From a virus, in the IMG/VR virus record IMGVR_UViG_3300050026_000188: a DNA stretch of 47,912 bases. The stretch is one strand, 5' to 3'. Both the position numbers and the translations under genes were made by a program. Of this stretch, positions 5,916 to 47,912 are shown one piece after another; position 1 is the stretch's first letter, and the number at the start of each line of letters is the position of its first letter. A model generated the notes under the pieces. The model was not told where the DNA came from and did no database searches. It saw nothing but the letters and a program-made list of their open reading frames with translations.

Positions 5916-5987
5916 CAAAGCCGTCAATAATATACGATAAAAATAACATTTGCAACTTGAAAATAATTGTGCAATGCTTTCCGTAAT

Positions 5988-7214: not shown

Positions 7215-7273
7215 ACCGCAGAACGCCGCGCCTTTTTGTAACCGAAGCAAAGCAGTAAACCGGAGGACCAAAA

Positions 7274-8179
7274 ATGTTTCAGAAGTCCGTCAATCTTTAC
7301 AACCCGCTCGCAGTTGAGGGAGATTTCGCCGACGCGAATCCTCGCGCAACTGTACCCGCTGGGGAAGGCGGCCTTGTGGCCGGTCCCCTTGGAGTGACAG
7401 TCGGCCGCTTTGCCTGGGTTTCGGCAGACGGTAAGACAGTCACGAATTACGGAGAAGGCGCGGCCGCGCCGGATGGTTTCGTTCACCGCCAGGAAGGTGC
7501 AGCGCTGATTACTGCATACTTGGGGGAAGCGTCCAACCTGATCCTGGCTGGCTTCCCCGTCACTCTCCATAACGCCGGCAGTTTCTTCGCGAAGGCGAAC
7601 GGGCAGGCTTCCACTCTCCGCGGCTCGGTTTACGCGAGCTACGCAGACGGCTCCGTTTACATGGGCGCGGCTCCCGCCGGCTCGACTGCAACCGGCGCAA
7701 TCGGCGCAACGTTCACGGCGACGGGCACGGGTACCAGCCTGGCGGTCACTGCAGTAACCGGGCTGATCTCCATCGGAGACGTGATCTTGGGTACTGGCGT
7801 ACCTGCCGGGACCGCAATTCTCGCCCAGGTGAGCGGTCCAACCGGCGGCGCGGGAACGTATACCACCAGCGTTGCGACAACGGCAGCGGGCGTAACCGTA
7901 ACCAGCTTCGGCAACGTGCTCAACGTCTCCGCAGTTGCAACCGGCGTGCTCGCAGTTGGCGACGGCATTACCGGGACCGACGTACCTGCAGGCGCAACCA
8001 TCGCATCGCAGGTTAGCGGCGCGGCGGGCGGCGTGGGCGTGTATACGCTCAACATCCCGGCAACTGCTTACGCGGCTTCTACGGCGCTCACGGTTGCCGG
8101 CGGCGTCCTCACGAAGTTCGTAGCCAAGTCCGCTGTCAACGTCGGCGAGCTTGTCAAAATCTCAACGTGGGGGAACTAA
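7274..8179 (+). CDS. Head-associated structural protein with two internal ~45-aa Gly/Thr-rich repeats
   Basis: GDVILGTGVPAGTAILAQVSGPTGGAGTYT and GDGITGTDVPAGATIASQVSGAAGGVGVYT repeats; lies between scaffold and capsid genes. Confidence 0.35.
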   Translation: MFQKSVNLYNPLAVEGDFADANPRATVPAGEGGLVAGPLGVTVGRFAWVSADGKTVTNYGEGAAAPDGFVHRQEGAALITAYLGEASNLILAGFPVTLHNAGSFFAKANGQASTLRGSVYASYADGSVYMGAAPAGSTATGAIGATFTATGTGTSLAVTAVTGLISIGDVILGTGVPAGTAILAQVSGPTGGAGTYTTSVATTAAGVTVTSFGNVLNVSAVATGVLAVGDGITGTDVPAGATIASQVSGAAGGVGVYTLNIPATAYAASTALTVAGGVLTKFVAKSAVNVGELVKISTWGN

Positions 8180-8186
8180 GCCAGTC

Positions 8187-9218
8187 ATGGACCCAATACT
8201 CGTAGCGCTCGCAATGGACGCCGGCATTCACTTCATGGGCACGGAAGCCATGTTGCAACTGCCGAACGTGGCTCACAGCATCCGTGTCGCAATGGACGCT
8301 CAGCCGGCACTAATCACAACCAGCAACGCCGGTATCCCCGCGTTTCTTTCGACGTACATCGATCCCAAGTTGATTGAGATCCTGGTTGCGCCGATGAAGG
8401 CCGCGGAGATCGTCGGAGAGGAAGTCAAAAAGGGCGATTGGACAACGGATACAGCGATGTTCCCCGTTGTGGAATCAACCGGCGAGACTTCGAGCTACGG
8501 CGATTACAGCAATAACGGCGTGGCCGGCGCGAATACCAACTTTCCCCAGCGTCAGAGCTATCACTACCAGGTGATTACTCAGTGGGGCGAGAAGGAACTC
8601 GCGAAGGCGGCTCTTGCGAAAATCGACTGGGCGAATCGCGTCAACATCGCGAGCGTTCTCACCCTCAACAAATTCCAGAACAAGACGTACTTCTACGGCG
8701 TGGCCGGCCTGCAGAATTACGGCTTGCTCAACGATCCCAACCTTTACGCCCCCATCGCCCCCACCAACGAGGGCGGAAACATTACCTGGGCGAACAAGGA
8801 TGCTCTCGGGATCTACGCCGATATCCTCGCGCTCTTCACTCAGTTGCAGGCGCAGACCGGAAATACATCTCTGGTTGAGATGGATGCAAAGATGACGCTC
8901 GCGCTGTCTTCTGGCGCGATCGTCAACCTCGGTAAAGTCACTCAGTTCAACGTCAACGTCAAGACGACGATCAAGGATAACTTCCCCAACCTGCGAATCA
9001 TGACGGCTCCGGAATACTCGACAGCGGCGGGCAACCTTGTGCAACTCATCGTTGACGAAGTTGAAGGGCAGCGTACCGTTGAAGTCGCTTTCACCGAGAA
9101 ACTGCGGGCTCACCCGATTGTTATCGAGATGAGCGCCTTCAAGCAGAAGAAATCGCAGGGAACTTTCGGAAGCATTGTTTATCGCCCAATGTTTATCGCG
9201 GCGATGCTCGGCGTATAG
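8187..9218 (+). CDS. Major capsid protein (DUF2184-like)
   Basis: About 345 aa ORF in the capsid position; GGGGGA before ATG at 8187; family assignment is by gene order and general resemblance only. Confidence 0.55.
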   Translation: MDPILVALAMDAGIHFMGTEAMLQLPNVAHSIRVAMDAQPALITTSNAGIPAFLSTYIDPKLIEILVAPMKAAEIVGEEVKKGDWTTDTAMFPVVESTGETSSYGDYSNNGVAGANTNFPQRQSYHYQVITQWGEKELAKAALAKIDWANRVNIASVLTLNKFQNKTYFYGVAGLQNYGLLNDPNLYAPIAPTNEGGNITWANKDALGIYADILALFTQLQAQTGNTSLVEMDAKMTLALSSGAIVNLGKVTQFNVNVKTTIKDNFPNLRIMTAPEYSTAAGNLVQLIVDEVEGQRTVEVAFTEKLRAHPIVIEMSAFKQKKSQGTFGSIVYRPMFIAAMLGV

Positions 9219-9301
9219 CTCGGTAACTGTTGACGGTGTACAGTAATAAGAGGGCTGGGGGAATATCCTCAGCCCTCAAATTACATAACGAAGGGAATTT
9301 T

Positions 9302-9640
9302 ATGGCAAAGATTGTTATTGGCTGCAGGCTTCCAAACGGGTTGGTTTTGACTCACCCGATCAGCGGAGAGAGCGTGACTCTCGCGGGCTTGCATAGCTCG
9401 AAGATCATCGGCTCAACCCACGTATCAACCGAAGTCGATGCCGATTTCTGGGAAGCGTGGAAAGCAAAGTACAAGGATTTTACGCCGCTCAAGACTGGCG
9501 CGATCTTTGAGGCTCGCAACGAGACGGAAGCAATCTCGAAGGCGAAAGAACTCCGCAAGGAAAAAACAGGCTTCGAGCCGATGGCGACAGACGGCAAAGA
9601 TCCCAGGGCGAGCGGCGTAAAGAAAGCCGACGCAAAGTAA
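9302..9640 (+). CDS. Hypothetical head-module protein
   Basis: ORF with ATG at 9302 (MAKIVIG...); no recognised motif. Confidence 0.3.
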   Translation: MAKIVIGCRLPNGLVLTHPISGESVTLAGLHSSKIIGSTHVSTEVDADFWEAWKAKYKDFTPLKTGAIFEARNETEAISKAKELRKEKTGFEPMATDGKDPRASGVKKADAK

Positions 9641-9746
9641 CAATGAGCGAGAAGCGGCCTACGAAACGGACTCTTCCCCCGCAAGTCGGAGGAGTGCGAA
9701 TCAAGGCTAAACCTAACTTGGATTATTACGACGGGAGAAAATAACA

Positions 9747-9980
9747 ATGAGCGTCCGCGGGAAGTTTATGGTAAGTTCCGTCACGAACCTGAGTGCGACA
9801 AGCACTTACGTCAATGTGAAGTTGAGAGCGGTATACAGCAATAGCCCCGAAGACAATAGCTATTCGGCGGCAACACCGAGCGGAAGTATTGAGATGACCA
9901 TCACCAACCCGGCGGCGGTTGAGCAGCTACCAATCGGCGCACAATTTTACGTTGACTTCACCGCCGTAACCGAAGGGTAA
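9747..9980 (+). CDS. Small hypothetical structural protein
   Basis: 77-aa ORF with GGGAGA upstream; position in the head-tail joining block. Confidence 0.3.
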   Translation: MSVRGKFMVSSVTNLSATSTYVNVKLRAVYSNSPEDNSYSAATPSGSIEMTITNPAAVEQLPIGAQFYVDFTAVTEG

Positions 9981-33904: not shown

Positions 33905-34609
33905 ATGGTCTACGTCGGAGGTAAATCTAAAGTCGCGAAAGATCTGGCTGCCATTATCTCGCTCTTCAGTCCCCGCGTTTATTGGGAGCCCTTCGTGGGA
34001 GCCGGGACCGTCATCCAATACGTCAAAGCTCCCGTAAAAATTGGAAGCGATTTAGACATTCATATCGCTTCGTTTTTGGAGTGCGTTCGAGACGGATGGC
34101 TTCCGCCGGCTGAGGTTTCCGAGAGTGACTATCAGTTTCTCAAGAGTTATGTACCTCTCACTCGCGAGTGCTACGCGACAAAGGCGGCCATCGGTTATGG
34201 ATGCTCTTTCGGAGGTAAATGGTTTGGCGGATTTGCGCGAAACACCCGGCATAGTTCCTATGCCGGGTATGTCTATAACTCATCCCGCAAACAAAGCCCT
34301 TTGTTGCAAGGTATTCAATTCAAAAATCAGAGTTACCTTGACGGTCTGCCCGAAGGTGTTGATCTCATCTATTGCGATCCCCCTTACGCAAATACCACCA
34401 GTTGCGGGAGCGGCCGACAGTTCGATTCAAAGCTATTTTGGGACTGGTGTAGAGCCGTAGCTCTTCGAGGTATCACCGTCCTGGTTACAGAGTTCACCGC
34501 GCCGGATTTCGCAATGGAGATTTGGCGCAAAGAGAAGCCGGCCGATTTGCGGCGCGGAGATAACAAAGGTATGACAGAGAAATTGTTTCTAGTTAGGGGA
34601 GCAGCATGA
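33905..34609 (+). CDS. DNA adenine methyltransferase, Dam family
   Basis: Motif I YWEPFVGAGTV and motif IV LIYCDPPY in alpha-class order. Confidence 0.85.
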   Translation: MVYVGGKSKVAKDLAAIISLFSPRVYWEPFVGAGTVIQYVKAPVKIGSDLDIHIASFLECVRDGWLPPAEVSESDYQFLKSYVPLTRECYATKAAIGYGCSFGGKWFGGFARNTRHSSYAGYVYNSSRKQSPLLQGIQFKNQSYLDGLPEGVDLIYCDPPYANTTSCGSGRQFDSKLFWDWCRAVALRGITVLVTEFTAPDFAMEIWRKEKPADLRRGDNKGMTEKLFLVRGAA

Positions 34610-34926
34610 GCAACAAGCGATTCAAACCAACCATCAGACGCGAGCTTATTTTGAGAGCAGCAATCGAGAGCGCCAGGCAGCCCGGCGGCTGGTCACTGAT
34701 TACGCGCCAGGTAATCGCCAACGCTGCCGGCTGCTCTGAGGGATTAGTATCCCGCTACCTGGGCGATATGAAGGATGCGCGGCGTGTCATTATGAAAGCC
34801 GCGATTCGGGACGAAATTACGGAAATAATTTACCAAAGTCTTGTCGCACACGACGGTTACGCCGTAAAGAAGTGGCTTCCCGAACCCCTCAAGCAAAAGG
34901 CCCTTCGCAGCGTAATGGATCTGTAA
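34606..34926 (+). CDS. Small helix-turn-helix DNA-binding protein
   Basis: ITRQVIANAAGCSEGLVSRYLGD resembles a TetR-type HTH. Confidence 0.4.
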   Translation: MSNKRFKPTIRRELILRAAIESARQPGGWSLITRQVIANAAGCSEGLVSRYLGDMKDARRVIMKAAIRDEITEIIYQSLVAHDGYAVKKWLPEPLKQKALRSVMDL

Positions 34927-37401: not shown

Positions 37402-37603
37402 CCGCCTTTCTCGGATGCACGTAGCCGCACTTAGAGCACGGCTTGCGGCGTTGGGTTGCTGTGAGTGGCGTCCCGCACTTAGCGCACGGCTTGAGCTTGA
37501 CGTTGGTAGCCTTCGGCGCTTTGGCGCGGTTGCGCCGCCCGTGCTCGCTGCGAAACTCAGAGTCGGGAATCGTGGTGAGATCCCAATGCGGCGTGTACTT
37601 CAA
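37394..37603 (-). CDS. Small zinc-ribbon-like protein (uncertain)
   Basis: CAKCG ... CSKCG pairs in a 69-aa ORF; overlaps the primase 3' end. Confidence 0.25.
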   Translation of the reverse strand: MKYTPHWDLTTIPDSEFRSEHGRRNRAKAPKATNVKLKPCAKCGTPLTATQRRKPCSKCGYVHPRKAAS

Positions 37604-37824
37604 TTTGAGCCCCCTTATTCAGACAGGTTACTAGTGGGATGATACTATGCGGTGAAGCGCAAGCGGGGCAGGAAATCGCAGAGTCTATAACACTCTGGCA
37701 ATTCTCGCACCAGTAAGCGCCGCTAAGGGAGATGTGAGCCATTAGGCCATCCTCTTGATGAAGAGCGAAACTGCGAGCCCTACGGCGATGCCGGCCACTA
37801 CTCCGACGGTGAAAGCGATTGAGA

Positions 37825-38457
37825 TCATTTGCTCACCCGCTTTAGAAATAATGCCTTCTGACGTTCAATAGCCGCCGAGTACGCCGCCCAGTACGCCGAG
37901 TCCGCCGCCGAGTCCGCCGCCGAGCGCGCCGCCGAGCGCGCCGCCAAGCGCGCCGAGTACGCCGCCGAGTCCACCGCCGAGTCCACCGAGTCCACCGAGT
38001 CCACCGCCGAGTTCGCCGAGTCCGCCGCCCAGTACGCCGAGTCCGCCGCCGAGTCCGCCGCCGAGTACGCCGCCGAGTACGCCGCCGAGCGCGCCGCCGA
38101 GCGCGCCGCCGACTTTTTATCTTCTAACTGAGCAAGCGTAATTTTTCCGTCCATAAAATCGCTCGCGGCTTGCAGCGCTTCGCGAGGGCGCTTGTCGTCA
38201 GGAAACGCCTTCTCAAAATTACCCAGAACTTCCATTGCAAAATCAACAGAGAGTAAAACGATGGCTCGCTTACAGGGCTCCGTAGTCGCTCGCATTGCCC
38301 AGATCGCATGATCTAAGCCGTTGGATTTGAGGATGCGTTTTAGACTGATTTCTTTATCGTCAGTCCACTTGGAGCCGAGTGAAGCTGTCAGAGTTTGTAA
38401 TCCAGCAGAGCAGGCGTTTGCCTTGTGAAGTAGAGCGAGCGTGGTTTTGAGCATCAT
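37825..38457 (-). CDS. Protein with a C-terminal SAA(R/Y/D) tetrapeptide repeat array
   Basis: ATG ATG at 38457 with AGGAGG upstream; non-repetitive N-terminal domain of about 110 aa, then SAARSAARSAAYSAAYSAADSAADSAYW... repeats. Confidence 0.45.
   Translation of the reverse strand: MMLKTTLALLHKANACSAGLQTLTASLGSKWTDDKEISLKRILKSNGLDHAIWAMRATTEPCKRAIVLLSVDFAMEVLGNFEKAFPDDKRPREALQAASDFMDGKITLAQLEDKKSAARSAARSAAYSAAYSAADSAADSAYWAADSANSAVDSVDSVDSAVDSAAYSARLAARSAARSAADSAADSAYWAAYSAAIERQKALFLKRVSK
37871..38112. repeat. GC-rich 12/9-bp tandem repeat array (GCCGCCGAG + 3 nt) inside a coding region
   Basis: About 20 consecutive units readable directly in the sequence. Confidence 0.85.
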
Positions 38458-38483
38458 TGTGAGCGCCTCCTGAGCGCTGATAC

Positions 38484-38512
38484 AGAGTATCAATTTACTA
38501 GTAAGCTGTCAA
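38484..38512 (-). promoter_or_regulatory. Promoter-operator cassette copy 1
   Basis: Minus strand: TTGACA - 17 nt containing TTACTAGTAA - TACTCT, then leader with AGGAGG. Confidence 0.4.
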
Positions 38513-39237
38513 ACATCAGGCTCTACCAGTGGAGCCAGACATTTCGCGGTAATACTGCCGATCCGTTCGGGCGTGAGCTTGGCGGCCTTCTGGCGAGCGT
38601 CTAAGAGCGCTTGCTTGGGGGTATCGCCAGCGCCGCCGCGTTGCCCGGTGTTGATCTCGGTTATGGTGAAACGGACGTTATCATCAGCGACGGTCCCGAA
38701 GCGGATGAGCGCAAAGCTCAGGAGAGGAAACTCGTGGATGCTTACGGGTACGCCCATCCGCTCCGTCTTCGGATCTGTTACCAGTTTGCCGGCAACCATT
38801 ACGGGGATCATTCCCTCTCCGTCTTCATCAAACTTCGCCCGCTTGAGCGCCTTCCTTTGATCCGTCGTCAACGCGCCGGTAAGCGATCTCTTTTGAAGCC
38901 GCTCGCTCTCTTTGTCACTCCAAGCGCTGAGAGTCTTGATCGCAGCGCCGCGGGCAATGATCAGGAAACGCGCCCGCGTCTTTACGTGGCCGGCCTGCCC
39001 CACCACTTCAAGCAGACGGGTACCAACCGGCAGCTTTACGCCGAAGGGCGGATGCCCCTCCTCTAAACCCATTCCTTCGATTTCGTGCTCACTCTCAACG
39101 ATCCTCACCGATTGGATGGTTACGCCCTTCGCCCAGGCTCGCAGGCGCTTACCGTCAATGCAGGCCGGCGCGTGCCCTTCTACGGGGATCGCTACGATGG
39201 GGGCTTTGGCTTTGAGCAGGCTCTTGATATTCATCAT
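38509..39237 (-). CDS. Hypothetical early protein
   Basis: 242-aa ORF downstream of a promoter-like cassette; no recognised motif. Confidence 0.35.
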   Translation of the reverse strand: MMNIKSLLKAKAPIVAIPVEGHAPACIDGKRLRAWAKGVTIQSVRIVESEHEIEGMGLEEGHPPFGVKLPVGTRLLEVVGQAGHVKTRARFLIIARGAAIKTLSAWSDKESERLQKRSLTGALTTDQRKALKRAKFDEDGEGMIPVMVAGKLVTDPKTERMGVPVSIHEFPLLSFALIRFGTVADDNVRFTITEINTGQRGGAGDTPKQALLDARQKAAKLTPERIGSITAKCLAPLVEPDV

Positions 39238-39243
39238 TCCTCT

Positions 39244-39272
39244 AATCTACCAGGTTACTAGTTATCTGTCAA
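39244..39272 (-). promoter_or_regulatory. Promoter-operator cassette copy 2 (variant palindrome, leaderless layout)
   Basis: TTGACA - 17 nt with TAACTAGTAA - TAGATT, then 6 nt to ATG. Confidence 0.4.
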
Positions 39273-39459
39273 TCCAATTCTTTGCCATTATCTCAGCGTC
39301 CCGGCGAAGGATCGTTAGCTCAACGTCGCCCCCGAGTGCCTGACGTTTGAAGCCCAGGGCGACGGCGTATTTATACGGGCTCTGATCTACGGGACCGGCG
39401 ATCTGGCTCACCTTCGCCCAGCGCCGGCCGCGGCGATAGTATTTGACGGGCGGGATCAC
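39262..39459 (-). CDS. Hypothetical small protein
   Basis: 65-aa ORF. Confidence 0.25.
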   Translation of the reverse strand: MIPPVKYYRRGRRWAKVSQIAGPVDQSPYKYAVALGFKRQALGGDVELTILRRDAEIMAKNWIDR

Positions 39460-39502
39460 CAGCGGTCAGCTTTCGCGAAGCAAACGATGATGACTAGCCT
39501 GA

Positions 39503-40180
39503 TCATGCGTCCAACCTCTCGGGGCGGCCGTTGTCGTCTTCGTCGAGATGCCGAGCGGTTTCGGCTTCCTCAGCGCGTATGCGAGCTTGCACCGAGAGAA
39601 AGTGTAGATCGTCGGCGTCAGTCCCCGTGGCATCGCGATCACGCCCAAGAGAGTTTTGCAGATCAAATAGTTCGGGGTGATTAGCCTTGAACGTTTTGAA
39701 GAAATAAGCATCCCGCTCAAGGCCGCGAGTCACTGGTAATTTATTGGTCAGAAGATCCGGCATTTGAATCGAAGGGTCTATTTCCATTGCTAGAGCGAGC
39801 ATCCTGGCCTTGAAATACTCACGGTCGTCCCAGTGGAGAACGATGCATATGGGGGCCAGATCTTGACGCTTAGGCTTCGGGCGGAGAGCTAGTTTACGCT
39901 CTTGCAGTTCAGCGTGAGCTTTGGCGAGTTCGATGCGCTGTCGCCGCTGATCACTCTTTTCGCGCTCGATAGCTAACCGCTCTTCCTGTAACTCAAGCCG
40001 CCGCGCTCGGTTAGCGTCACTCTCAGAAGATGAGTATGCTACGGCTGATCCCCGGATGCACATCTCACAAGTGCTGCTCTGCAAATAACGCTCAGCGATG
40101 TGTCCATTTTTACAGGGCTCACCTGTAAAATACTTTTTGAGCCCCAACGTTATTGCTTGCTGCCGCGTAATTATTTCCAT
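39503..40180 (-). CDS. Zinc-finger plus coiled-coil protein (regulator candidate)
   Basis: N-terminal KKYFTGEPCKNGHIAERY...CEMC; Arg/Glu/Gln-rich coiled segment; first gene leftward of the AT-rich control region. Confidence 0.4.
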   Translation of the reverse strand: MEIITRQQAITLGLKKYFTGEPCKNGHIAERYLQSSTCEMCIRGSAVAYSSSESDANRARRLELQEERLAIEREKSDQRRQRIELAKAHAELQERKLALRPKPKRQDLAPICIVLHWDDREYFKARMLALAMEIDPSIQMPDLLTNKLPVTRGLERDAYFFKTFKANHPELFDLQNSLGRDRDATGTDADDLHFLSVQARIRAEEAETARHLDEDDNGRPERLDA

Positions 40181-40435
40181 GAGTCAAACATTACGCTGGG
40201 AATTATTATCTGTCAAATACCGTATGTAGGATTACCCCGTCGCCCTCACCCCGAAGGCACTTCCGTAGCGCTCTAGGAACGAAGTTTGTCGAAATCAAAT
40301 GTCGTCATATCTATGTATGTAATGATTCCTACCTATTAGTATGTACTATTTCTATTTCTCCTTATTTCTCTCTATGTGTTGATTTGATATATATAAGGGT
40401 AATAGAGAAAAGAGGGTGTAACTCCAATAGAATCA
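40181..40435. promoter_or_regulatory. AT-rich divergent control region with short direct repeats
   Basis: AT-rich island in a GC-rich genome between divergent genes; repeated TATGTA and ATTTCT motifs. Confidence 0.4.
40188..40216 (-). promoter_or_regulatory. Promoter-like element without the palindrome (leaderless layout)
   Basis: TTGACA - 17 nt - TAATGT, then 7 nt to ATG of gene 39503..40180. Confidence 0.35.
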
Positions 40436-41335
40436 ATGACACCCAATAACTACCCCGTAATTACACCGCTAGCCATTCGGGGTAATTCTAAGCGCCCGTT
40501 TGCATTGTGGATGCCCGGCGCGGTAATGTGGGAAGCCAGGGATATGCTCAGTGATCGTCAAAAACGTTTCGTCTTCCATCAGGCTCGCATTACTGATGGT
40601 GCAAAGGCTTACGTATTGGCAGGTTACAGCGAGCAGGGAGCGGCTCAAGGCGCTTCGCGTCTGTTACAGAACGTTGAGATACAGGAAGCTATAGAGGTTG
40701 AGCGGGCGGACCTGGCCCGTGTCGCGAGCCTGAGCCCCGAATGGGTTTTGAATCGATGGATGTTGATCGCCAGCGCGGACCCGAGAGATCTGATCCATAC
40801 CCGCATCGGCTGCTGTCGGCATTGCTGGGGCATTGATAACAAACGGGAATGGATGGAACACGAATACGCTACCGCGCTCAACGAAGCTCTGACTTGCATG
40901 TTGCTGCCGCCGGCCTTCGAGGGTGGCCTAGGGTACTCGCCGACTCGCGAGCCTAACCCTGACTGCCCTAAGTGCAAGGGCGAAGGCTTGCCGCGGACCT
41001 GGCTCGCCGACTCCCGCAAGCTGAGCCGTTCGGCCGCGGCTCTCTTCGCTGGCGTAAAGCAGACGAAGGATGGGATTGAGATCAAGATGCACGATCAGCC
41101 CGAAGCGCTCAAGTCGCTCGCCGATTACCTGGGGATGCAGAACAAGAGCAGCGCCGATGTAAAGCTGGCTGCGGCTCTGGTGGTGGGCGGGAGCGCTAAG
41201 GATCTCTCAGACGATGAGCTTGCCGGCATCATTGAGCGGGGGCGGTTGCGGAGGGCTCGAGCTGCGACTTTGGGGGTATCTGCGGGGGTATTATCGCCGG
41301 CGGCGTTGCCAAGTAAGACAATCGAGGGCACTTAG
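40436..41335 (+). CDS. terS: Terminase small subunit-like protein (SPP1 G1P / Terminase_2-like) with Cys-rich insert
   Basis: LSDRQKRFVFHQARITDGAKAYVLAGYSEQGAAQGASRLLQNVEIQEAI...RVASLSPEWVLNRWMLIASADPRDL matches the small-terminase N-terminal pattern; CCRHC / CPKC cysteines. Confidence 0.65.
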   Translation: MTPNNYPVITPLAIRGNSKRPFALWMPGAVMWEARDMLSDRQKRFVFHQARITDGAKAYVLAGYSEQGAAQGASRLLQNVEIQEAIEVERADLARVASLSPEWVLNRWMLIASADPRDLIHTRIGCCRHCWGIDNKREWMEHEYATALNEALTCMLLPPAFEGGLGYSPTREPNPDCPKCKGEGLPRTWLADSRKLSRSAAALFAGVKQTKDGIEIKMHDQPEALKSLADYLGMQNKSSADVKLAAALVVGGSAKDLSDDELAGIIERGRLRRARAATLGVSAGVLSPAALPSKTIEGT

Positions 41336-41467
41336 TGCCGGCTTCGAGTCCCTAAGTAGGAGCGATGCACTAAAAAGCCCCCTCAGTTGAGGGGGCTGGC
41401 GGCACTCGGGGAGCCGGTTAGATGTGCATAAGAGCGCGATTGGATGCGAGCGAACGGGGGAAGCGTC

Positions 41468-41641
41468 TCAGCGTCGCATTCTTCCGGCGAAGGGATCAGG
41501 GCGGCCCAGGGCTGCTGTGACGCGCGCCAGCTCGATCTGATCAAGCATCGGCAGATCGGGTTTGGAGCCGATCTGATCTTTGATCGTCAGGGCTAAGATG
41601 GTGAGCAAGCTGAGTGCGGCAGGGATAAACAAAATGTACAT
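41468..41641 (-). CDS. Small membrane protein
   Basis: ATG with GGAGGA upstream; hydrophobic helix ILFIPAALSLLTILALTI. Confidence 0.3.
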   Translation of the reverse strand: MYILFIPAALSLLTILALTIKDQIGSKPDLPMLDQIELARVTAALGRPDPFAGRMRR

Positions 41642-41659
41642 GGAATCCTCCAAGTTGAG

Positions 41660-41688
41660 ATATTACCAAGTTACTAGTAAGCTGTCAA
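41660..41688 (-). promoter_or_regulatory. Promoter-operator cassette copy 3
   Basis: TTGACA - 17 nt with TTACTAGTAA - TAATAT, then leader with GGAGGA. Confidence 0.45.
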
Positions 41689-41858
41689 GAGTTATTTTCA
41701 TTTATTTCGAGCGTTTCCGCGTCGCATTCTTCCGGCGAAGGGATTGGGGCGGCCTTTACAACCTGGGCGCATACCAGGTGCATCGCGGCGCGGCGGGCTT
41801 TGCTACTGGGGGACGCGAGCAGGATCGCCAAGCTATCAGAGAGGATCTTCGCGGTCAT
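41685..41858 (-). CDS. Hypothetical small protein
   Basis: Short ORF; 3' end carries the same ~35-bp element as the neighbouring gene. Confidence 0.25.
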   Translation of the reverse strand: MTAKILSDSLAILLASPSSKARRAAMHLVCAQVVKAAPIPSPEECDAETLEINENNS

Positions 41859-42103
41859 GCTGCTACCTCCCACGCCCACGCGCCAGGCTTGTAAGTGCTC
41901 TGCGAGAGCTTCGAGCCGCGGAGAGTGATCACGCGAAGGCTACCGTCTGCCCGCAACACCAGAGCGCCCCCGCGCCGGCGAGCCCAGGCGTTGACGGCCG
42001 CCTTCCATGATGCCGCTTTCGTGGCGTTCGCGAGATTGCGCCATTCGGCAACGGTGAGAAGGTTGGTAGGCTGAGCGTTCGGGTTGAAGTTCGTAACTGT
42101 CAT
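41855..42103 (-). CDS. Small protein, paralogue B (MTVTNFNPNAQPT... N-terminus)
   Basis: Shares N-terminus and 5' leader with the upstream gene. Confidence 0.3.
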   Translation of the reverse strand: MTVTNFNPNAQPTNLLTVAEWRNLANATKAASWKAAVNAWARRRGGALVLRADGSLRVITLRGSKLSQSTYKPGAWAWEVAA

Positions 42104-42406
42104 TTTTGGGGTATCCTCTCGACTGCAGATACAAGAGCCTCAGCGATCCGCCGCAACGTTGCAGCATCGAAGGCGTAGTTATTCGCGGCGTTGATCCTGG
42201 CGGCCATCTCTTCGCAGGTGAGTTCCGGCGTGTTGAGGTAACGAGTGATCTCTTGAAAGAGATCCCCAGTAACTTGGTAATCTATATATGCAGTCGAGAG
42301 GATACAGCAAAATGCTTTCGTGGCGTTCGCGAGCTTGGTAGGCTGAGCGTTCGGGTTGAAGTTCGTAACTGTCATTTTTGGGGTATCTTCTCGACTGCAG
42401 ATACAG
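42015..42406. repeat. Direct repeat of about 95 bp (42015..42133 and 42314..42406) carrying leader + N-terminal coding sequence of two adjacent small genes
   Basis: Near-identical copies differing by one 28-bp indel and one substitution. Confidence 0.8.
42100..42375 (-). CDS. Small protein, paralogue A (MTVTNFNPNAQPT... N-terminus)
   Basis: ATG at 42375; the ORF track starts at 42414 with an alternative codon. Confidence 0.3.
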   Translation of the reverse strand: MTVTNFNPNAQPTKLANATKAFCCILSTAYIDYQVTGDLFQEITRYLNTPELTCEEMAARINAANNYAFDAATLRRIAEALVSAVERIPQK

Positions 42407-42433
42407 ATTAGCAAGTTACTAGTAAGCTGTCAA
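42405..42433 (-). promoter_or_regulatory. Promoter-operator cassette copy 4
   Basis: TTGACA - 17 nt with TTACTAGTAA - TAATCT. Confidence 0.4.
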
Positions 42434-42825
42434 CATAATAATGAATCTAATTTATATTCGGCCTGCAGGCGAACGCGAACGGCGTCAAGCGCCAGACATT
42501 CGGCCTTTACGAATTCGTAAGCCTTCGGGAAGCCCATCGCCGGCAGTGCGTTGCGCTGAGCAAACTTCGCTTCCTGGGCGCGGTACTCTGGGGACTGGCG
42601 AAGGATTGCTTGAGCCGCCCTGGTGCGTTCGGCGCGGTACTCATCAGCCGCCGTCTTCGGGTGAGCGATGCCAGTGTTGCGGGTAACGCATACCGAGCCG
42701 TAATGAAGGATCTCACCAGATGAGAGAAGCTCAACGGCGAAGGTTCCCTTGAGCCCAGTCTTACCGCAACAATCGCAGTTTGTAACCTCATCAGTGAAGC
42801 CGAAGATCTTGAATTTGTTTTCCAT
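42430..42825 (-). CDS. Cys-rich hypothetical protein
   Basis: NCDCCGKTG ... C motif; ATG 6 nt downstream of a -10-like hexamer. Confidence 0.35.
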   Translation of the reverse strand: MENKFKIFGFTDEVTNCDCCGKTGLKGTFAVELLSSGEILHYGSVCVTRNTGIAHPKTAADEYRAERTRAAQAILRQSPEYRAQEAKFAQRNALPAMGFPKAYEFVKAECLALDAVRVRLQAEYKLDSLLC

Positions 42826-42831
42826 AAAGAG

Positions 42832-42860
42832 ATATTACCAAGTTACTAGTAAGATGTCAA
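42832..42860 (-). promoter_or_regulatory. Promoter-operator cassette copy 5 (leaderless layout)
   Basis: TTGACA - 17 nt with TTACTAGTAA - TAATAT, then 6 nt to ATG; the 44-bp surround is nearly identical to copy 3. Confidence 0.45.
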
Positions 42861-42869
42861 GAGTTATTT

Positions 42870-43026
42870 TCAAATTCTTTTAGAAGCAATCGTTCCCTTG
42901 CTTCGCGGTATCCTGAGCTTGCGATAGAGGGTTCCCCTTCCAATCTGGATCAGCTTGGCTGCTTGGCGCTTATCGCCGTCGCATCGACGTACGGCCTCAT
43001 GGATCAGTCGCATCTCAAGCTCTGCC
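42870..43026 (-). CDS. Fis-type helix-turn-helix DNA-binding protein
   Basis: MAELEMRLIHEAVRRCDGDKRQAAKLIQIGRGTLYRKLR matches the Fis/NtrC C-terminal HTH pattern; ATG at 43026 (ORF track starts further upstream). Confidence 0.5.
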
Positions 43027-43153
43027 ATCGTTGGCAGTGTGTCGCCAAGTTCAAGGATCGGCTTCGGGAGTGGCCGCCGGCATCGTACACAGAAGGCTCG
43101 AACAAACTGATTTAGACCGCATGAGCAGCGCACTGATGGCCGCACATCGCACG

Positions 43154-43354
43154 TCACTCCGCGCCCCCGATCTCAGCGATCAGCGCCCGTATGCTCTCAA
43201 CGCTCCAAACCCGAATACGCGGGCTGAGCAGCCGGCCGGCCGGGAAGCGGCCACTTTTGACGCCCGCCCACCAGGTTGCACGGCAGACGGGGATGACGGC
43301 GAGTATTTGGGGCAATCTCACAAAACCAACTTCAGGAAGGTTCATACACTCCAT
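43154..43354 (-). CDS. AlpA-family regulator / excisionase-like HTH protein
   Basis: FVRLPQILAVIPVCRATWWAGVKSGRFPAGRLLSPRIRVWSVESIRALI matches the AlpA pattern. Confidence 0.6.
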   Translation of the reverse strand: MECMNLPEVGFVRLPQILAVIPVCRATWWAGVKSGRFPAGRLLSPRIRVWSVESIRALIAEIGGAE

Positions 43355-43442: not shown

Positions 43443-43703
43443 ATGGCAACCCCCAACCCGCTAGACGAGATGAATTGGGAAGATCGCTTTATGTATGCGT
43501 TCCGCAGCGTGCTAGTGCTTGAGAACAGGCTCGAAGATGCGCTCGCACTACTCAAAGAGCAACGCCCTGAGATTGTGATTTTGCACAACGGCGATCAGGT
43601 TCAAAAGCTACGCGAGCGCCATCAGATCAGACAGCTACGCAAAGAAGGTGTGAGTTATCGGAACATCGCGAAGCGCATTCAACAGTTGCGGAAAGTAATT
43701 TGA
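43443..43703 (+). CDS. Hypothetical small protein with basic C-terminus
   Basis: 86-aa ORF; C-terminal RQLRKEGVSYRNIAKRIQQLRK could be a DNA-binding helix. Confidence 0.3.
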   Translation: MATPNPLDEMNWEDRFMYAFRSVLVLENRLEDALALLKEQRPEIVILHNGDQVQKLRERHQIRQLRKEGVSYRNIAKRIQQLRKVI

Positions 43704-44133
43704 CAGCGGCAATTACTGCGGGTACTGTGTTGGCTTACGGAGAGCGGCGAGACTCAACTCGTAGGGGCCATCTCTCGCCGCTTCCCCGGCAACTAACTGC
43801 GACCAAACGTCACAGCGAGCAAAAGAGCAATGTGTTGGCTTTCCGCCCCCGCACTGCTCCGATGCAAATGGCAGCCTAAAAACTGTCGGGGTACGCCGGA
43901 TGCTCTACCTGGCAACAGAAAAGGCCGGCACTATTTTAGGAGACAATCAGTGACCGTCGCAGAGCAAGTCAACCAGATCCAAAAGAAACTGCGCGAGCGG
44001 ACGATGGGCTCGCAGTTGCCGGTTGATCGCGTAGATGCTCCGTGCTGGTTGGACCTGCCGCGGGAGCGGGTGACGCTTAGATGGGGGTATTTGACGGAGA
44101 GACAGGGACACTAAGCGAGTTTGTAACCTTCAC

Positions 44134-44231: not shown

Positions 44232-47200
44232 CTAGTTACCAATGCAAATATAGCGAATTGCGTCACTACCTAAACCGCCATCATCTGAAAATGTCACCGA
44301 CGATCCACTTGTGTAAGTAACTCCCAGTGCGTTAAGATTGATGGTGCTGACTGTTGCGCTCGTCATACAGGCATAAGAGGATGAACTGGTAAATATGGCT
44401 GACCCGCTAAATGTCACCGTTGCAGCACCACCAGAAAGCGTCGTCAAGCCCATCACTGTGTGCGCAGATGTCAGTTGCGTCCCGGCGGCGTTGTAGAGCG
44501 TTCCACCAGGGCACCCCGTCCCATCCGCAAGGCAGTGGGCTTCTGGTACTCCGCTACCATTCAAGTCTGTGCTGCCCGCTCCTGCTGAAGATACACCTGT
44601 GCTACTTACTTGAAACTGGCTACTTGAACCAACGGATAGCAACGCCGCTGGCGAAGTCGTCCCGATGCCGACGTTGCCTTGGAAAATACCTCCACCTGTT
44701 CCAACCCACAGACTCTTCCAACGTTGGCCCGTAACCCCAAGGTTAATCGTATTATCGAAGGCGGGGGCCGGATTAAGACCAGTTGCGGTTAATTGCATTA
44801 CATCCTCATAAGCTGGGGAACCCGGCAGCTCAAAAGCGAGCGTGGTATACGTGCTCTGCGCACCAATCCTTAAAACATTATAGGTGCTGTCCAAATATAT
44901 AAAGGCTGGCGGCGTCTGCCCATTTATTACGATTGGGTTGGCAAAGACTGTAGGATTTCCGGCGATAGTCAGGCCGCCCGTGCGCAATGCGCCAGTGCCA
45001 AGATCAAGAGCCTGTACAGGGCTCGTCGTCCCGATACCGACGTTGCCGTTATTATCTATCCTGACCTTTTCCGTTGGTCCACTAAGACCATCATTTTGCG
45101 TGAGAAAACGAATCTGCGATAGTGTATTTTGCGAACCAGATACGATGTCAAGTATTCGTGCATAGATGCCTGCCGTTGGGAAATTTTGAGCTTGGTAAAA
45201 ATTGAAAACACCTTGGTCACTAATACCATATGTTCTTAAATTAGTATCAGTAGACGGATTTCCCAAAGACAACTGCCCACTCGGCCCCGTCGTCCCGATG
45301 CCGAGTCTATGATTCGTCGCATCCCAGAAGAAATTGGAATTGTCTTGTGCGATGGTTGAGCCATTTGAGAACAACACGGAGCCAGAGGTTAGCGAAGGCA
45401 AAGTGAATGTCCCGTAAGTATTTGTGTCCAGCGCAAACGTCCCTGCTGCCGTCATCTTTACGAATGGTGTGCCCGTAGTCCATGTCGGATAATTCAACGC
45501 GCCCCATGTGCCTACGGAAGGCAGAGCCGTGCATCCCCCGCTGGACATCAATGCGCCAGAGCAAGAGCCGGAACCAAACAGCGCCGTTATATCGCTGTAT
45601 AGCGGAGTGCGCCACGCCGTGTTCCCACTATTCGCCACGCCAATCGTGTTTGCTCCGGGGTAGGTCATGGTACTGCCCGGAGTCTGCCATCCCTGAGCTG
45701 TTGCCCCAGAGTTCATCCCCCAGACTTGGTTTGCCGTGCCGTTGGTGCTGAGGTTTGTGGCTGTGGATGAGTTGCCAGTAAAAGCGGCTCCATGAAGTGT
45801 CGCTAATCCGGCTGCACTACCGAAGTATTCATCAGTTACCGCAGCATTGCCAATTACTGCTGTGTTGGAACCTGCTCCAACTGCCGTCGATCCTACTACA
45901 ATTTCGTTTGTGTTACCATTCGCACTTGCCTGTGTGTTCTGCCCCAGGAAAGTCCCGTAGCTACCCGTTATATTATGATACCCAGTAGGAAGTAAAGTTC
46001 CTGCTAAATAGCCCGCTGCTGTATTACCATTGCCCGTAGTAGTGAACTGAAGCGCCCCACTTCCAATTCCGGTACTGTAACTCCCAGAAGAGTTTGTAGC
46101 TAGGGTATTATTTCCGATTCCTATGTTATTGCCCCCACTTGTAAGATTGTAGAGGGCAGAGTCCCCTAAGCCTATATTGTTACTACCTGTCTCTATGCCA
46201 CCGTAACCTATTGCCTCAGCACCTATCGCGATATTGAATGATCCAGAGGCACCAAGTAGGTTTGATGTACCTATGGCAATGTTCACTGTGCCGGTAGAAC
46301 TTGCTAAAGTGCTACTATTACCGATGGCAATCGAACTAGCTCCTCCATACGTCAAGGGCAAACCGCCCCCTAAATTCAGATTAGAAGATGGGATGGTATA
46401 AATTGCGACCCCACTATCCTGAACCTGGTCCCCTGTTCCGGTAAAGGTTACGGCATCATTGGCGGTTGCGCTGCCGGGTCCGGTGACTGGGTTGGTAAGC
46501 GCGAGTTGGAAGTCCGTAGCCGCATGAGTCGCCGCCGTCCCTACCGTTGTAGAACAGCCGCTCGCTCCGTTGCTCAGATCGCCACATGCTGCTTGACTGA
46601 ATGTTGCGCTGCCGTTCGACTTGACCGCGCCTGTCACGGCCCCCGCGTTGTCCGCCTTCGTGCCTTGTGCCGCCGTGGCATAAGCCGTGGACGCGGTGTA
46701 AGCCGCCGACCCAACCGCACCGCTGCCAAGCAGCACCGAGCCACTTCCATAGGTACTTAGCTCGCCCAGCACGCCGCTGTTGTTGTACTCGATGTGGCCA
46801 GTCGTGCCACCCGCAATCGTCGTGGTGCCTACGGTGATCGTTCCAGCAGATGCGGATATGGTACAGGTTCCACCCAGGGCGCAGTTCTGGCCGTTGACCG
46901 TAGTCACCGAGTTTGCTAAGGCTGCGTTCGGTACCGCCTCATACGTCACCGTGTTCGTACCGGTCACTACCGGTACGGTGTTGGTTGAAGGGCTGGAACC
47001 GTAGCTAACTCCATTCACCACTGCAACCGTGGGAGTTGCGGTCGTCACTGCTGTCAACTGCCCCGCTGCGTTGTAGGTGATAACTGGTATCGCTGTCGCG
47101 CTTCCCGTCGGCCCTGCCGCCGTAATGACCCCACCCGAGGGGACGTGGCTTGCCGATGTGCCGATAGGGAGGTAGGAATAGCCCACAGTCCCAGACGAGA

Positions 47201-47912
47201 TGTTGCTGGCGTTGGAGGCGTAAGTTTCAGCATTCGATTGAGCCGTGGAAGCTGCGCCAGAAGCATCATAGGCCGTTGATGCGGTAAACGCCGCAGTACC
47301 AAATACGCCCCCAGCCGCAGTCGTCAGATAGGAAAGCGTCGTTACGGTTGGCGCAACCGGAGTGTAGGTCAACGCGGTAGTCACCTGGCCAGAGGTCATG
47401 CCGGTTAGGTTCGCCATACTGAAGGTCGGTGCCGCCGTGAAAGTCGGAGCCGCGCTGCTGCCGGTGAAGTTGCCAAAAACGGTGTTCGCCGCCTGATTCT
47501 TGAGTGTTGCCGTGACCGTTCCGCTGGTTGTTACCGCTGTACTCGGAGTCGAACTGTCCACCGTGCCATCGCCCGTGAAGGTCACGCTGCTTACGCTTCC
47601 CGTAGATGTTCCGCACGTTGGGCAAGAGATCGCTCCCGTTGCCGCGACTACAATTGGGAGTGTTCCGCTCAGTCCAGCCGAACCAACCGAGCCGATGGGA
47701 ATGCCAGTCGGCAGATAACTCACTCCAATGGTTCCAGTGTTGATGTGGCTGGCATTCTGCGCGTAAGTCTCGGCATTGCTCTGAGCCGTTGCCGCCGCAC
47801 CGGAAGCATCCGCTCCCACACTTGCCGCTGTTGCCGAGATCGCCCCCGCCGTGTTGAGGATGCTTGTCCCATCCGGCTTCACGCCTCCGAGCACGGTCGA
47901 AGTCGCCGTGGG
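44232..47912 (-). CDS. C-terminal part of the giant secreted tail-fibre-like protein (N-terminal part at 907..1)
   Basis: ORF is open to the window edge and matches 1..77; A..S..A..S fibre-type repeats (TAQSNAETYA.NAS twice); several N.GIGTTSP motifs. Confidence 0.6.
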   Translation of the reverse strand, partial: PTATSTVLGGVKPDGTSILNTAGAISATAASVGADASGAAATAQSNAETYAQNASHINTGTIGVSYLPTGIPIGSVGSAGLSGTLPIVVAATGAISCPTCGTSTGSVSSVTFTGDGTVDSSTPSTAVTTSGTVTATLKNQAANTVFGNFTGSSAAPTFTAAPTFSMANLTGMTSGQVTTALTYTPVAPTVTTLSYLTTAAGGVFGTAAFTASTAYDASGAASTAQSNAETYASNASNISSGTVGYSYLPIGTSASHVPSGGVITAAGPTGSATAIPVITYNAAGQLTAVTTATPTVAVVNGVSYGSSPSTNTVPVVTGTNTVTYEAVPNAALANSVTTVNGQNCALGGTCTISASAGTITVGTTTIAGGTTGHIEYNNSGVLGELSTYGSGSVLLGSGAVGSAAYTASTAYATAAQGTKADNAGAVTGAVKSNGSATFSQAACGDLSNGASGCSTTVGTAATHAATDFQLALTNPVTGPGSATANDAVTFTGTGDQVQDSGVAIYTIPSSNLNLGGGLPLTYGGASSIAIGNSSTLASSTGTVNIAIGTSNLLGASGSFNIAIGAEAIGYGGIETGSNNIGLGDSALYNLTSGGNNIGIGNNTLATNSSGSYSTGIGSGALQFTTTGNGNTAAGYLAGTLLPTGYHNITGSYGTFLGQNTQASANGNTNEIVVGSTAVGAGSNTAVIGNAAVTDEYFGSAAGLATLHGAAFTGNSSTATNLSTNGTANQVWGMNSGATAQGWQTPGSTMTYPGANTIGVANSGNTAWRTPLYSDITALFGSGSCSGALMSSGGCTALPSVGTWGALNYPTWTTGTPFVKMTAAGTFALDTNTYGTFTLPSLTSGSVLFSNGSTIAQDNSNFFWDATNHRLGIGTTGPSGQLSLGNPSTDTNLRTYGISDQGVFNFYQAQNFPTAGIYARILDIVSGSQNTLSQIRFLTQNDGLSGPTEKVRIDNNGNVGIGTTSPVQALDLGTGALRTGGLTIAGNPTVFANPIVINGQTPPAFIYLDSTYNVLRIGAQSTYTTLAFELPGSPAYEDVMQLTATGLNPAPAFDNTINLGVTGQRWKSLWVGTGGGIFQGNVGIGTTSPAALLSVGSSSQFQVSSTGVSSAGAGSTDLNGSGVPEAHCLADGTGCPGGTLYNAAGTQLTSAHTVMGLTTLSGGAATVTFSGSAIFTSSSSYACMTSATVSTINLNALGVTYTSGSSVTFSDDGGLGSDAIRYICIGN

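Follow-up and report, generated by a model that had tools for sequence, protein, structure and literature searches.

A short promoter cassette recurs six times on the minus strand, between positions 38484 and 42860, in the early region of the 47,912-nt window analyzed here (the whole of IMG/VR virus record IMGVR_UViG_3300050026_000188). We propose that the copies are strong early sigma-70 promoters carrying an operator for a dimeric protein in the spacer between the -35 and -10 elements, that they often drive leaderless genes, and that they have spread by recombination, a reading to which the sequence evidence leads us to give a probability of roughly 0.6. The full cassette consists of TTGACA, 2 nt, a 10-bp palindrome, 2 nt, TGn, and TAnnnT, with a spacer of 17 bp. 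A first-pass annotation of this DNA had listed six minus-strand TTGACA-N17-TAnnnT sites, all of which are present exactly where it placed them and with the palindrome tally it gave (TTACTAGTAA in four sites, TAACTAGTAA in one, and none in the sixth). The -35 is a perfect TTGACA in all six and in 28 of the 29 cassettes that we tabulated from eight contigs including the window; the 17-bp spacer and a TAnnnT -10 are likewise common to all six window sites, and five of them have an extended -10 (TGn) that was overlooked earlier. The palindrome overlaps promoter DNA, always lying 2 nt past the -35 and 2 nt ahead of TGn. Its distance from the -35 had been given as 5 nt rather than 2 nt, so the search motif proposed at that time, TTGACA-N5-TTACTAGTAA, would match nothing. 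The sites, numbered P1 to P6, and the genes behind them are as follows.

42832..42860, minus strand: P1, TTGACA tc TTACTAGTAA ct TGG TAATAT (full site TTGACATCTTACTAGTAACTTGGTAATAT), with the palindrome at 42843-42852.
42430-42825, minus strand: P1 gene, 131 aa, ATG at 42825-42823, 6 nt past the -10, leaderless layout.
42405..42433, minus strand: P2, TTGACA gc TTACTAGTAA ct TGC TAATCT.
42100-42375, minus strand: P2 gene, 91 aa, with a 29-nt stretch between P2 and the ATG at 42375.
41660..41688, minus strand: P3, TTGACA gc TTACTAGTAA ct TGG TAATAT.
41468-41641, minus strand: P3 gene, 57 aa, hydrophobic, with a leader containing a GGAGG Shine-Dalgarno sequence and the ATG at 41641.
40188..40216, minus strand: P4, TTGACA-N17-TAATGT, without palindrome and without TGn.
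39503-40180, minus strand: P4 gene, 225 aa, ATG at 40180, 7 nt past the -10, leaderless layout; matches phrog_1081.
39244..39272, minus strand: P5, TTGACA ga TAACTAGTAA cc TGG TAGATT.
38509-39237, minus strand: P5 gene, 242 aa, ATGATG at 39237, 6 nt past the -10, leaderless layout.
38484..38512, minus strand: P6, TTGACA gc TTACTAGTAA at TGA TACTCT.
37825-38457, minus strand: P6 gene, Imm5-like, with a 26-nt leader containing AGGAGG and the ATG at 38457.

These sites are far more frequent than chance would give. TTGACA-N17-TAnnnT matches the window seven times against 0.08 expected from shuffled sequences, six times on the minus strand and once on the plus strand at 43700, and TTACTAGTAA with at most one mismatch occurs five times against 0.32 expected. 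The hexamer ACTAGT is found six times in the whole 47.9 kb, every time within 37630-42850. A generic promoter scan of 30-48 kb returned no more candidates than shuffled sequence did; three of its hits reach 10/12 consensus, and these are all cassettes and the sole hits with TG. By their sequence, the cassettes are very likely sigma-70-type promoters. The seventh match, the plus-strand site at 43700 (TTGACAGC...TACTGT), retains the TTACT half-site only.

Full sites are located at gene junctions in every case and never within genes. The TGA inside TTGACA serves as the stop codon of three upstream ORFs (open reading frames; ends at 38509, 42430, and 41685), a fourth upstream ORF terminates in the first bases of the variant palindrome, and the cassette sequence, read directly, has stop codons in all three frames. 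With these stops and a preceding stop that abuts or overlaps it, the cassette makes up a complete gene junction. The first-pass annotation had named a similar frequency of the palindrome in coding regions as an outcome that would speak against its proposal; the sole ACTAGT inside a gene, however, belongs to a degenerate site that it had itself noted near 37627..37640, and which is present at 37628-37637 on the minus strand as CCACTAGTAA with no -35.

37628..37637, minus strand: degenerate copy CCACTAGTAAcctg, with 12 nt in common with P5; -35 missing and -10 poor; located within the 3' end of ORF 37557-37742.

This degenerate copy is either a decayed cassette or an operator-only site.

A motif search of the genome and its relatives, as the first-pass annotation had suggested, recovered the cassette in both viral and metagenome contigs. 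The relatives are known from sampled DNA of contigs, some of them short, and statements of presence or absence refer to that sampled DNA. Among viral contigs, the motif scan returned the same phage again (L007, 99.7% identical) and one distinct relative, L008, in which all seven generic promoter matches carry the motif, against 0.01 expected, and read TTGACAGCTTACTAGTA(A/G)GTTGGTAATCT. A pattern scan of metagenomes gave 57 single hits, the only informative ones being L070, L076, and L087, which are short relatives, and L054, an unrelated contig of 44% GC with two copies. Scanning one genome per species gave 12 single hits, mostly in metagenome-assembled genomes of Clostridia, and no multi-copy prophage that would point to a host. 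To avoid circularity, we also searched independently of the motif with the 242-aa protein behind the copy at 39244, which has 31 homologues, all metagenomic, and examined six of their contigs. Those with the cassette or a variant of it hold one to seven copies each: seven with perfect TTACTAGTAA in L106 (242-aa homologue 58% identical), one in L109 (53% identical), and one variant apiece in L110 (TTGACAgcCTACATGTAG; 46% identical) and L111 (TTGACAtgCTACTAGTAC; 45% identical). The remaining two, L107 and L108, have no cassette and carry other repeated intergenic elements instead, so the repeated regulatory elements look lineage-specific, as a co-evolving regulator and its site would give. The elements of L107, at 5620-7780, are the palindromes GTCCAGAAAATGGAC and TTCCAGAA-N6-TTCTGGAA upstream of TTGACA promoters; those of L108, at 8730-9980, are repeated G+C-rich hairpins followed by a Shine-Dalgarno sequence. 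In the unrelated contig L054, which is from groundwater, two TTGACA-N2-TTACTAGTAA promoters lie on the minus strand at 1447-1693, the first in leaderless layout before a gene for a 64-aa Xre-type helix-turn-helix (HTH) protein and the second directly after the stop of that gene; L054 has no protein similarity to the window.

The spacer palindrome persists where the flanking proteins are only 40-60% identical (L008, L106, L109, L070, and L076). Between genomes, the flanks outside the -35 and -10 differ and the -10 itself varies (TAATAT, TAATCT, TACTCT, TAGATT, TAGGCT, TATTGT), and despite this the 8-bp core TACTAGTA is conserved as strongly as the -35. Spacer positions 8-16 are conserved at the level of the -35 and above most -10 positions, with unconserved flanks, in a measure that is partly circular because part of the set was found through the motif. 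Two departures from the consensus are symmetric: the L110 variant, CTACATGTAG, has CATG in place of CTAG at its center and is still palindromic, and one L070 copy, CTACTAGTAG, has both outer bases changed and is palindromic as well. Such variants argue for a dimeric DNA-binding protein, and the palindrome probably acts as an operator. The promoter-operator reading of the first-pass annotation thus finds backing in the excess over chance, in the retention of the palindrome among relatives, and in the symmetric variants. We considered and rejected a role of the palindrome as an RNA hairpin or terminator: folding gave no significant hairpin (minimum free energy, -3.4 to -9.8 kcal/mol), with z-scores of -0.9 to +1.2 and thus about 0 relative to shuffled sequences. 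A literature search for TTACTAGTAA returned cloning primers only.

Three copies had been described as having an ATG 6-7 nt after the -10, with leaderless mRNAs as the consequence, and the distances are 6 nt for the copy at 42832, 7 nt for that at 40188, and 6 nt for that at 39244. No Shine-Dalgarno sequence is present in these three of the six window copies. Across the table of 29 cassettes, in which ORFs of at least 60 codons were counted, 19 have an ATG either 6 nt (17 cases) or 7 nt (two cases) past the -10, and the ORFs so placed span 60-242 codons and all start with ATG. The bases between the -10 and the ATG are mainly pyrimidines in most copies (ctcttt, ctactc), which makes the A of the ATG the first purine where transcription normally starts. 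Homologues support the start codon for the P5 and P4 genes, with nothing comparable for the P1 gene: in an alignment of 29 homologues of the 242-aa family, the conserved residues begin at codons 4-5 of the window gene, leaving no possible downstream start, and the phrog_1081 match to the P4 gene begins at residue 1. The counterpart of P4 in L106 is likewise without palindrome and likewise in leaderless layout. One gene family has the leaderless layout in L008 and a leader in the window. The recurrence of the layout in 19 of 29 cassettes, together with the N terminus fixed by 29 homologues, supports the leaderless mRNAs proposed in the first-pass annotation, and a leaderless design of these early genes is likely. 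At 4874-4910 in L106, a site with CTGACA as its -35 has GGAGG in place of the -10, 8 nt ahead of an ATG; here a promoter appears to have been turned into a Shine-Dalgarno leader with the palindrome retained.

The region also bears traces of recombination around the cassettes. Near-identical 44-bp contexts had been reported for copies 3 and 5; such contexts do exist, at 98% identity (41657-41700 versus 42829-42872), but they belong to copies 1 and 3 in the order of the minus strand. Longer repeats accompany them:

41657..41700, minus strand: 44-bp context of P3, 98% identical to the P1 context at 42829-42872.
41462-41506 and 41710-41754, minus strand: 45-nt direct repeats, 91% identical, bracketing P3 and the 57-aa gene.
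42060-42133 and 42332-42405, minus strand: 74-nt direct repeats, 97% identical.

The 45-nt repeat is read in different frames by two genes and so looks like a recombination scar around a promoter-gene module. In the 74-nt repeat, the P2 leader and the first ~14 codons are duplicated before the next gene (41855-42103). Copy number and gene order vary among the relatives, and these differing orders, together with the repeat-flanked modules, support the spread of the cassette by recombination that had been suggested from the 44-bp contexts. A small protein gene lies on the opposite strand between cassettes in two relatives (L106 3080-3412, minus strand; L109 8013-8375, minus strand) and has no counterpart in the window; its product has a hydrophobic, signal-peptide-like N terminus, and it looks like an accessory gene inserted in the early region.

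A well-described precedent for such elements is the promoter-early stem-loop (PeSL) of T4-type phages, a class of mobile regulatory cassettes (Arbiol, Comeau and Krisch 2010; PMC2839356). Like the PeSLs, the cassettes described here consist of a strong sigma-70-like early promoter that is repeated many times and preceded by an AT-rich stretch, stand directly before small genes of unknown function, and contain an inverted repeat that can sit between the -35 and -10; in both systems, single genes are inserted, lost, and rearranged through recombination between the copies. They differ in that the PeSL repeat is a G/C-rich terminator stem-loop, whereas the A/T-rich palindrome of our cassettes, 10 bp long, shows no significant fold. 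Shine-Dalgarno leaders precede the PeSL genes, whereas the leaderless layout prevails among the genes here. The phages themselves also differ, being ~48 kb, having temperate relatives, and not being T4-like.

From the cassette anatomy, excess, conservation, symmetric variants, start-codon positions, and repeat-flanked modules observed directly above, we infer promoter activity, start sites, protein binding, and repression along the following lines. Host sigma-70 RNA polymerase would drive the early genes from the cassettes by way of the consensus -35, the 17-bp spacer, TGn, and TAnnnT. The operator, yTAC(T/A)(A/T)GTAr, an 8-10-bp dyad at about -27 to -18, would be bound by a small dimeric protein which, placed between the promoter parts that sigma contacts, would block polymerase at all copies together and so provide one switch for the whole early region. 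Such a switch could serve to maintain lysogeny in the integrase-bearing relatives and to shut off early transcription in lytic growth. In about two-thirds of the copies, transcription would start on the A of the ATG and yield an mRNA with neither leader nor Shine-Dalgarno sequence, and a leaderless gene of this kind would be well translated only from its own promoter. The repeated 30-45 bp would provide patches of homology, allowing single promoter-gene modules to be acquired, lost, and rearranged.

Phage regulons with many operators are known from the C1 operators of P1, the operator and stoperators of mycobacteriophage L5 gp71, and the conserved inverted repeats of phiC31. There, as here, a short site is repeated at many transcription units, and one repressor could silence the set. 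The P1 and L5 sites are asymmetric, however, and most L5 sites are roadblocks rather than promoter operators, whereas the phiC31 sites lie beside promoters that are not of the sigma-70 type. In all three of these systems the repressor is known; in ours, the site is symmetric and in every case occupies the spacer of a consensus promoter, and the binder is putative. Operators between the -35 and -10 are also familiar, as in Arc of P22 at Pant, the operators of the MerR family, and tetO in PLtetO-1, where a dyad-symmetric site in the spacer is bound by a protein that interferes with or remodels polymerase binding, much as we envisage here. The Arc operator, in contrast to our 8-10-bp site, measures 21 bp and takes two dimers, and MerR spacers are overlong (19-20 bp) and are activated by DNA twisting, unlike the optimal 17 bp of the cassettes. 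As for translation, the lambda cI gene transcribed from PRM likewise has its start codon at the transcription start, a short fixed distance past the -10 and with no Shine-Dalgarno sequence; known cases of this type are single genes, whereas here the arrangement belongs to a repeated cassette and covers up to six of the seven early promoters in a genome. The combination is a variant of multi-operator phage regulons and T4 PeSL cassettes, and not a new kind of system.

The first-pass annotation had proposed four ORFs as the regulator. Three of them were not found in the sampled DNA of most cassette-bearing relatives or look truncated. The coordinates of one candidate, 42870..43026, were out of frame; the correct ORF is 42870..43028, or 42870..43157 when read from a GTG. 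This slip and those in spacing and copy numbering leave the interpretation unaffected. The candidate regulators are:

43154..43354, minus strand: gene for an AlpA-like small HTH protein, 66 aa, at the head of the early region (Phage_AlpA, E = 0.012).
42870..43028, minus strand: gene for a Fis-type HTH_8 protein, 52 aa (95 aa from GTG 43157), ending 10 nt upstream of P1.
34606..34926, plus strand: gene for a TetR-like protein, 106 aa, with a weak N-terminal HTH, inside the replication operon; 88% identical in L106.

Wherever the sampled DNA of a cassette-bearing relative includes the position of the AlpA-like gene, the protein is encoded there (57-95% identical); it is the only DNA-binding protein common to these relatives, which makes it the best-conserved candidate regulator. 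The promoter of its gene in L008 and L109 has the left half of the palindrome only. We rejected it as a specific marker of the cassette, with homologues in L036 and L038-L045 that come without a cassette. The Fis-type protein was not found in the sampled DNA of any relative. The TetR-like protein is a candidate for shutting off the early promoters in lytic growth; its relatives in viral contigs add one extra locus only, without an early region. The 86-aa ORF at 43443-43703 ends after the first HTH helix, looks like a remnant, and was set aside. Where the window has three small plus-strand ORFs (43443-44114), L008, L106, and L109 encode a P4-type integrase, indicating that the lineage is temperate, or recently so; the window may have lost its integrase module or had it replaced.

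Several points weigh against a phage-encoded dimeric repressor acting at leaderless cassettes. No CI, Xre, or S24-type repressor was found in the window. Homologues of the AlpA-like protein also occur in cassette-free elements (L036 and L038, the latter a P4/PICI-like element, that is, one resembling P4 or a phage-inducible chromosomal island, of the order int-alpA-primase-terS), and the AlpA family is usually described as binding DNA as a monomer. For a classical HTH dimer, one 10-bp palindrome makes a short site. With the outer pair imperfect in four of the seven L008 copies (TTACTAGTAG), firm constraint is limited to the 8-bp core. Copies sharing a genome arose by duplication and are not independent of one another. 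Finally, the ATG 6 nt past the -10 in the L008 copy at 2941 meets a stop after seven codons, with a Shine-Dalgarno sequence and the real start following, and shows that the ATG can travel with the cassette unused.

The failure to find a phage repressor in the window also speaks for a different proposal, namely that the palindrome is bound by a regulator of the host, such as a TrpR/YerC-family protein or a LexA-like global repressor, and that the phage has no repressor of its own, with early expression or induction tied to host physiology. The Bacillus phage GIL01 reportedly uses host LexA in this way. We regard this proposal as unlikely, although it survives better than the other alternatives. 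It would fit the two TTGACA-N2-TTACTAGTAA promoters of the unrelated 44% GC contig L054, as well as the presence of the palindrome in many further unrelated metagenomic promoters (L059, L010, L075/L083/L086, L095, L067/L093, and L052/L094), which have TTACTAGTA in the spacer and often a second copy just past the -10. One of these promoters (L059, 709-737), whose spacer contains TTACTAGTAT, is followed by a gene of the Trp_repressor family (PF01371, 1e-20), and the E. coli trp promoter-operator likewise has ACTAGT-centered symmetry inside a TTGACA promoter. Together, the L059 gene and the E. coli promoter make a TrpR-like factor, possibly of the host, a lead. The number of unrelated contigs says little, however, because they were found by motif search, and the cassettes lack the form of a TrpR-type operator: the trp operator overlaps the -10 and contains two ACTAGT motifs spaced 8 bp apart, whereas each cassette has one, centered at about -22/-23. 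Neither the window nor the sampled DNA of its relatives encodes a member of the Trp_repressor family. As for LexA, to our knowledge no motif type fits TAC-N2-GTA, the nearest box being the Bdellovibrio TTAC-N3-GTAA with a different spacing. The swap to other repeats in the more distant relatives L107 and L108 is moreover as expected of a phage regulator co-evolving with its operator. In L010 and L075, the gene downstream of the look-alike promoter encodes one of two related small proteins without a Pfam family. The small proteins behind the look-alike promoters of L010, L075, L059, and L054 were rejected as candidates for the regulator, having no counterpart in the window or its relatives; those of L010 and L075 are ribbon-helix-helix-like by eye only, that of L059 belongs to the TrpR family, and that of L054 is Xre.

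Less probable than a host regulator is a spacer that has no binding partner at all and is conserved either through the spread of the promoter as a unit, by duplication and recombination in recent times, or through tuning of promoter strength by spacer shape. Cassettes within a genome are nearly identical (in L008, 29 of 29 positions are almost invariant), and the 44-bp contexts are 98% identical, as such spread would leave them; the T4-type PeSL shows that strong early promoters do spread and mediate shuffling (PMC2839356). Yet TACTAGTA persists between genomes that differ in flanks and -10, and the two clear departures are symmetric double changes. The layout of the P4 promoter, furthermore, is conserved without the motif in two genomes, so the motif is not needed for a promoter as such.

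Doubtful to a still greater degree is the combined proposal that these are repressor-less phages in which a conserved host regulator, TrpR/YerC-like or other, binds the ACTAGT-centered palindrome within a portable cassette. If it were true, a gene acquiring the cassette would gain strong transcription, leaderless translation, and host-controlled silencing at once, and the cassette would be a promoter-side counterpart of the integron cassette, common to unrelated phage lineages.

It is quite improbable that the palindrome is mainly a target for recombination or modification, by a recombinase, a homing enzyme, or a methyltransferase, and that its place in the promoter is incidental. The repeat-flanked modules and the varying gene order among relatives would suit such a target, the phage encodes a D12-class methyltransferase and homing-endonuclease-like proteins, and the authors of the PeSL study speculated on a DNA-binding protein acting in recombination (PMC2839356). 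The register of the palindrome is fixed to the -35 (always N2) and to TGn in every copy, however, which points to a role in transcription, and homologous recombination between repeats of 30-45 bp already accounts for the shuffling. Nor is ACTAGT associated with any enzyme, and a fixed, restriction-type specificity would not accommodate the CATG variant of L110. Least probable of all, and very improbable in our view, is that the spacer site loads a processive antiterminator, as lambda Q does at its Q-binding element or Pseudomonas AlpA at its AlpA-binding element (ABE), with the loaded polymerase reading through downstream terminators: the ABE (GGGACG) shares the position between the -35 and -10 (PMC9371919), a small AlpA-named HTH protein is encoded at the head of the region, and a strong terminator ends the first operon, but the 66-aa protein is unlike the much larger, eight-helix Pseudomonas AlpA (DNA-contact residues 128-142), which we rejected as its homologue, no -10-like pause element lies past the start sites and coding begins at +1 in the leaderless copies, and Q-type sites are non-palindromic and usually one per genome, whereas here there are up to seven copies with no terminators between them.

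Should the reading of the cassettes as operator-bearing, often leaderless promoters hold, ~40 bp would suffice for a self-contained expression unit comprising the stop of the preceding gene, a consensus promoter, an off-switch, and a leaderless start codon. Leaderless translation could then be the default of a phage early program on sigma-70-type promoters, the idea of mobile regulatory cassettes would extend from T4-like phages to ~48-kb phages with temperate relatives, and the phage would offer a clean system in which to study the silencing of numerous very strong promoters by a single small operator. The cassette could also serve as a short, strong, repressible, leaderless promoter part.

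Turning to the genome as a whole, window bases 1-77 are identical to window bases 47836-47912, and this 77-bp overlap marks the window as a complete circular assembly with a length of 47,835 bp and a GC content of ~56%. A DNA-level search among sequenced phages found no close relatives, the best protein matches are to phages of Proteobacteria at 42-53% identity, and a search of GenBank phages for the cassette gave nothing real, placing it in no cultured phage. Structural genes, including those for the large terminase, portal, a DUF3383 sheath-like protein, and baseplate proteins, occupy the plus strand from ~1 to 24.8 kb, and a replication module at 25-37.4 kb encodes a family-B-like polymerase, a ParB-like protein, a gp2.5-like single-stranded DNA-binding protein, DUF2800, a helicase, a D12 methyltransferase, and an NrS-1-type primase-polymerase. 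The cassettes sit in a minus-strand block of small genes that runs from 43354 down to ~37400 and is interrupted by one plus-strand gene, for a Terminase_2-type small terminase (TerS) at 40436-41335. Two further features border this gene:

41376..41397, minus strand: intrinsic terminator, AGCCCCCTCAACTGAGGGGGCT followed by TTTTT, positioned at the end of the first early operon (P1-P3) in a convergent arrangement with the TerS-like gene.
40217..40435: AT-rich divergent region separating P4 from the TerS-like gene (40436-41335, plus strand).

Repeats of ACGGGGTA, in the form (T/C)ACGGGGTA, cluster at 40233-40484 in the window and at 6004-6244 in L106, covering in both genomes the AT-rich divergent region and reaching just into the small terminase gene. 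The palindrome-less P4 is probably under separate control, and the ACGGGGTA cluster may represent either a second control region or a pac or TerS site.

The only Terminase_2-type small terminase (40436-41335, plus strand) lies ~8 kb before the large terminase, and its placement, convergent with the first early operon, is conserved in L106, L070, and L087, and probably in L008. The ORF directly upstream of and overlapping terL (962-1639 and 1606-3099, respectively, both plus strand) is homing-endonuclease-like (phrog_314). The TerS-like ORF is therefore more likely a real small terminase than a regulator, and we rejected it in the latter role.

A search for Rfam families and tRNAs found none in the window. 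The 242-aa protein of the P5 gene has weak structural similarity to sliding clamps. A very large minus-strand ORF of ~1,500 aa spans the window junction, from 44232-47912 on into 1-908; it has a signal-peptide-like start (MRTKILLALALCFGLGAPAARAQ), no Pfam or PHROG match, and a Gly/Ser/Thr/Ala-rich composition resembling a fiber protein, and its N terminus recurs in a 990-aa protein that occupies the corresponding position in L008. Within the minus-strand P6 gene (37825-38457), a 12-nt tandem repeat of ~22 copies of GCCGCCGAGTCC at 37871-38112 encodes a run of SAAx repeats inside the Imm5-like protein.

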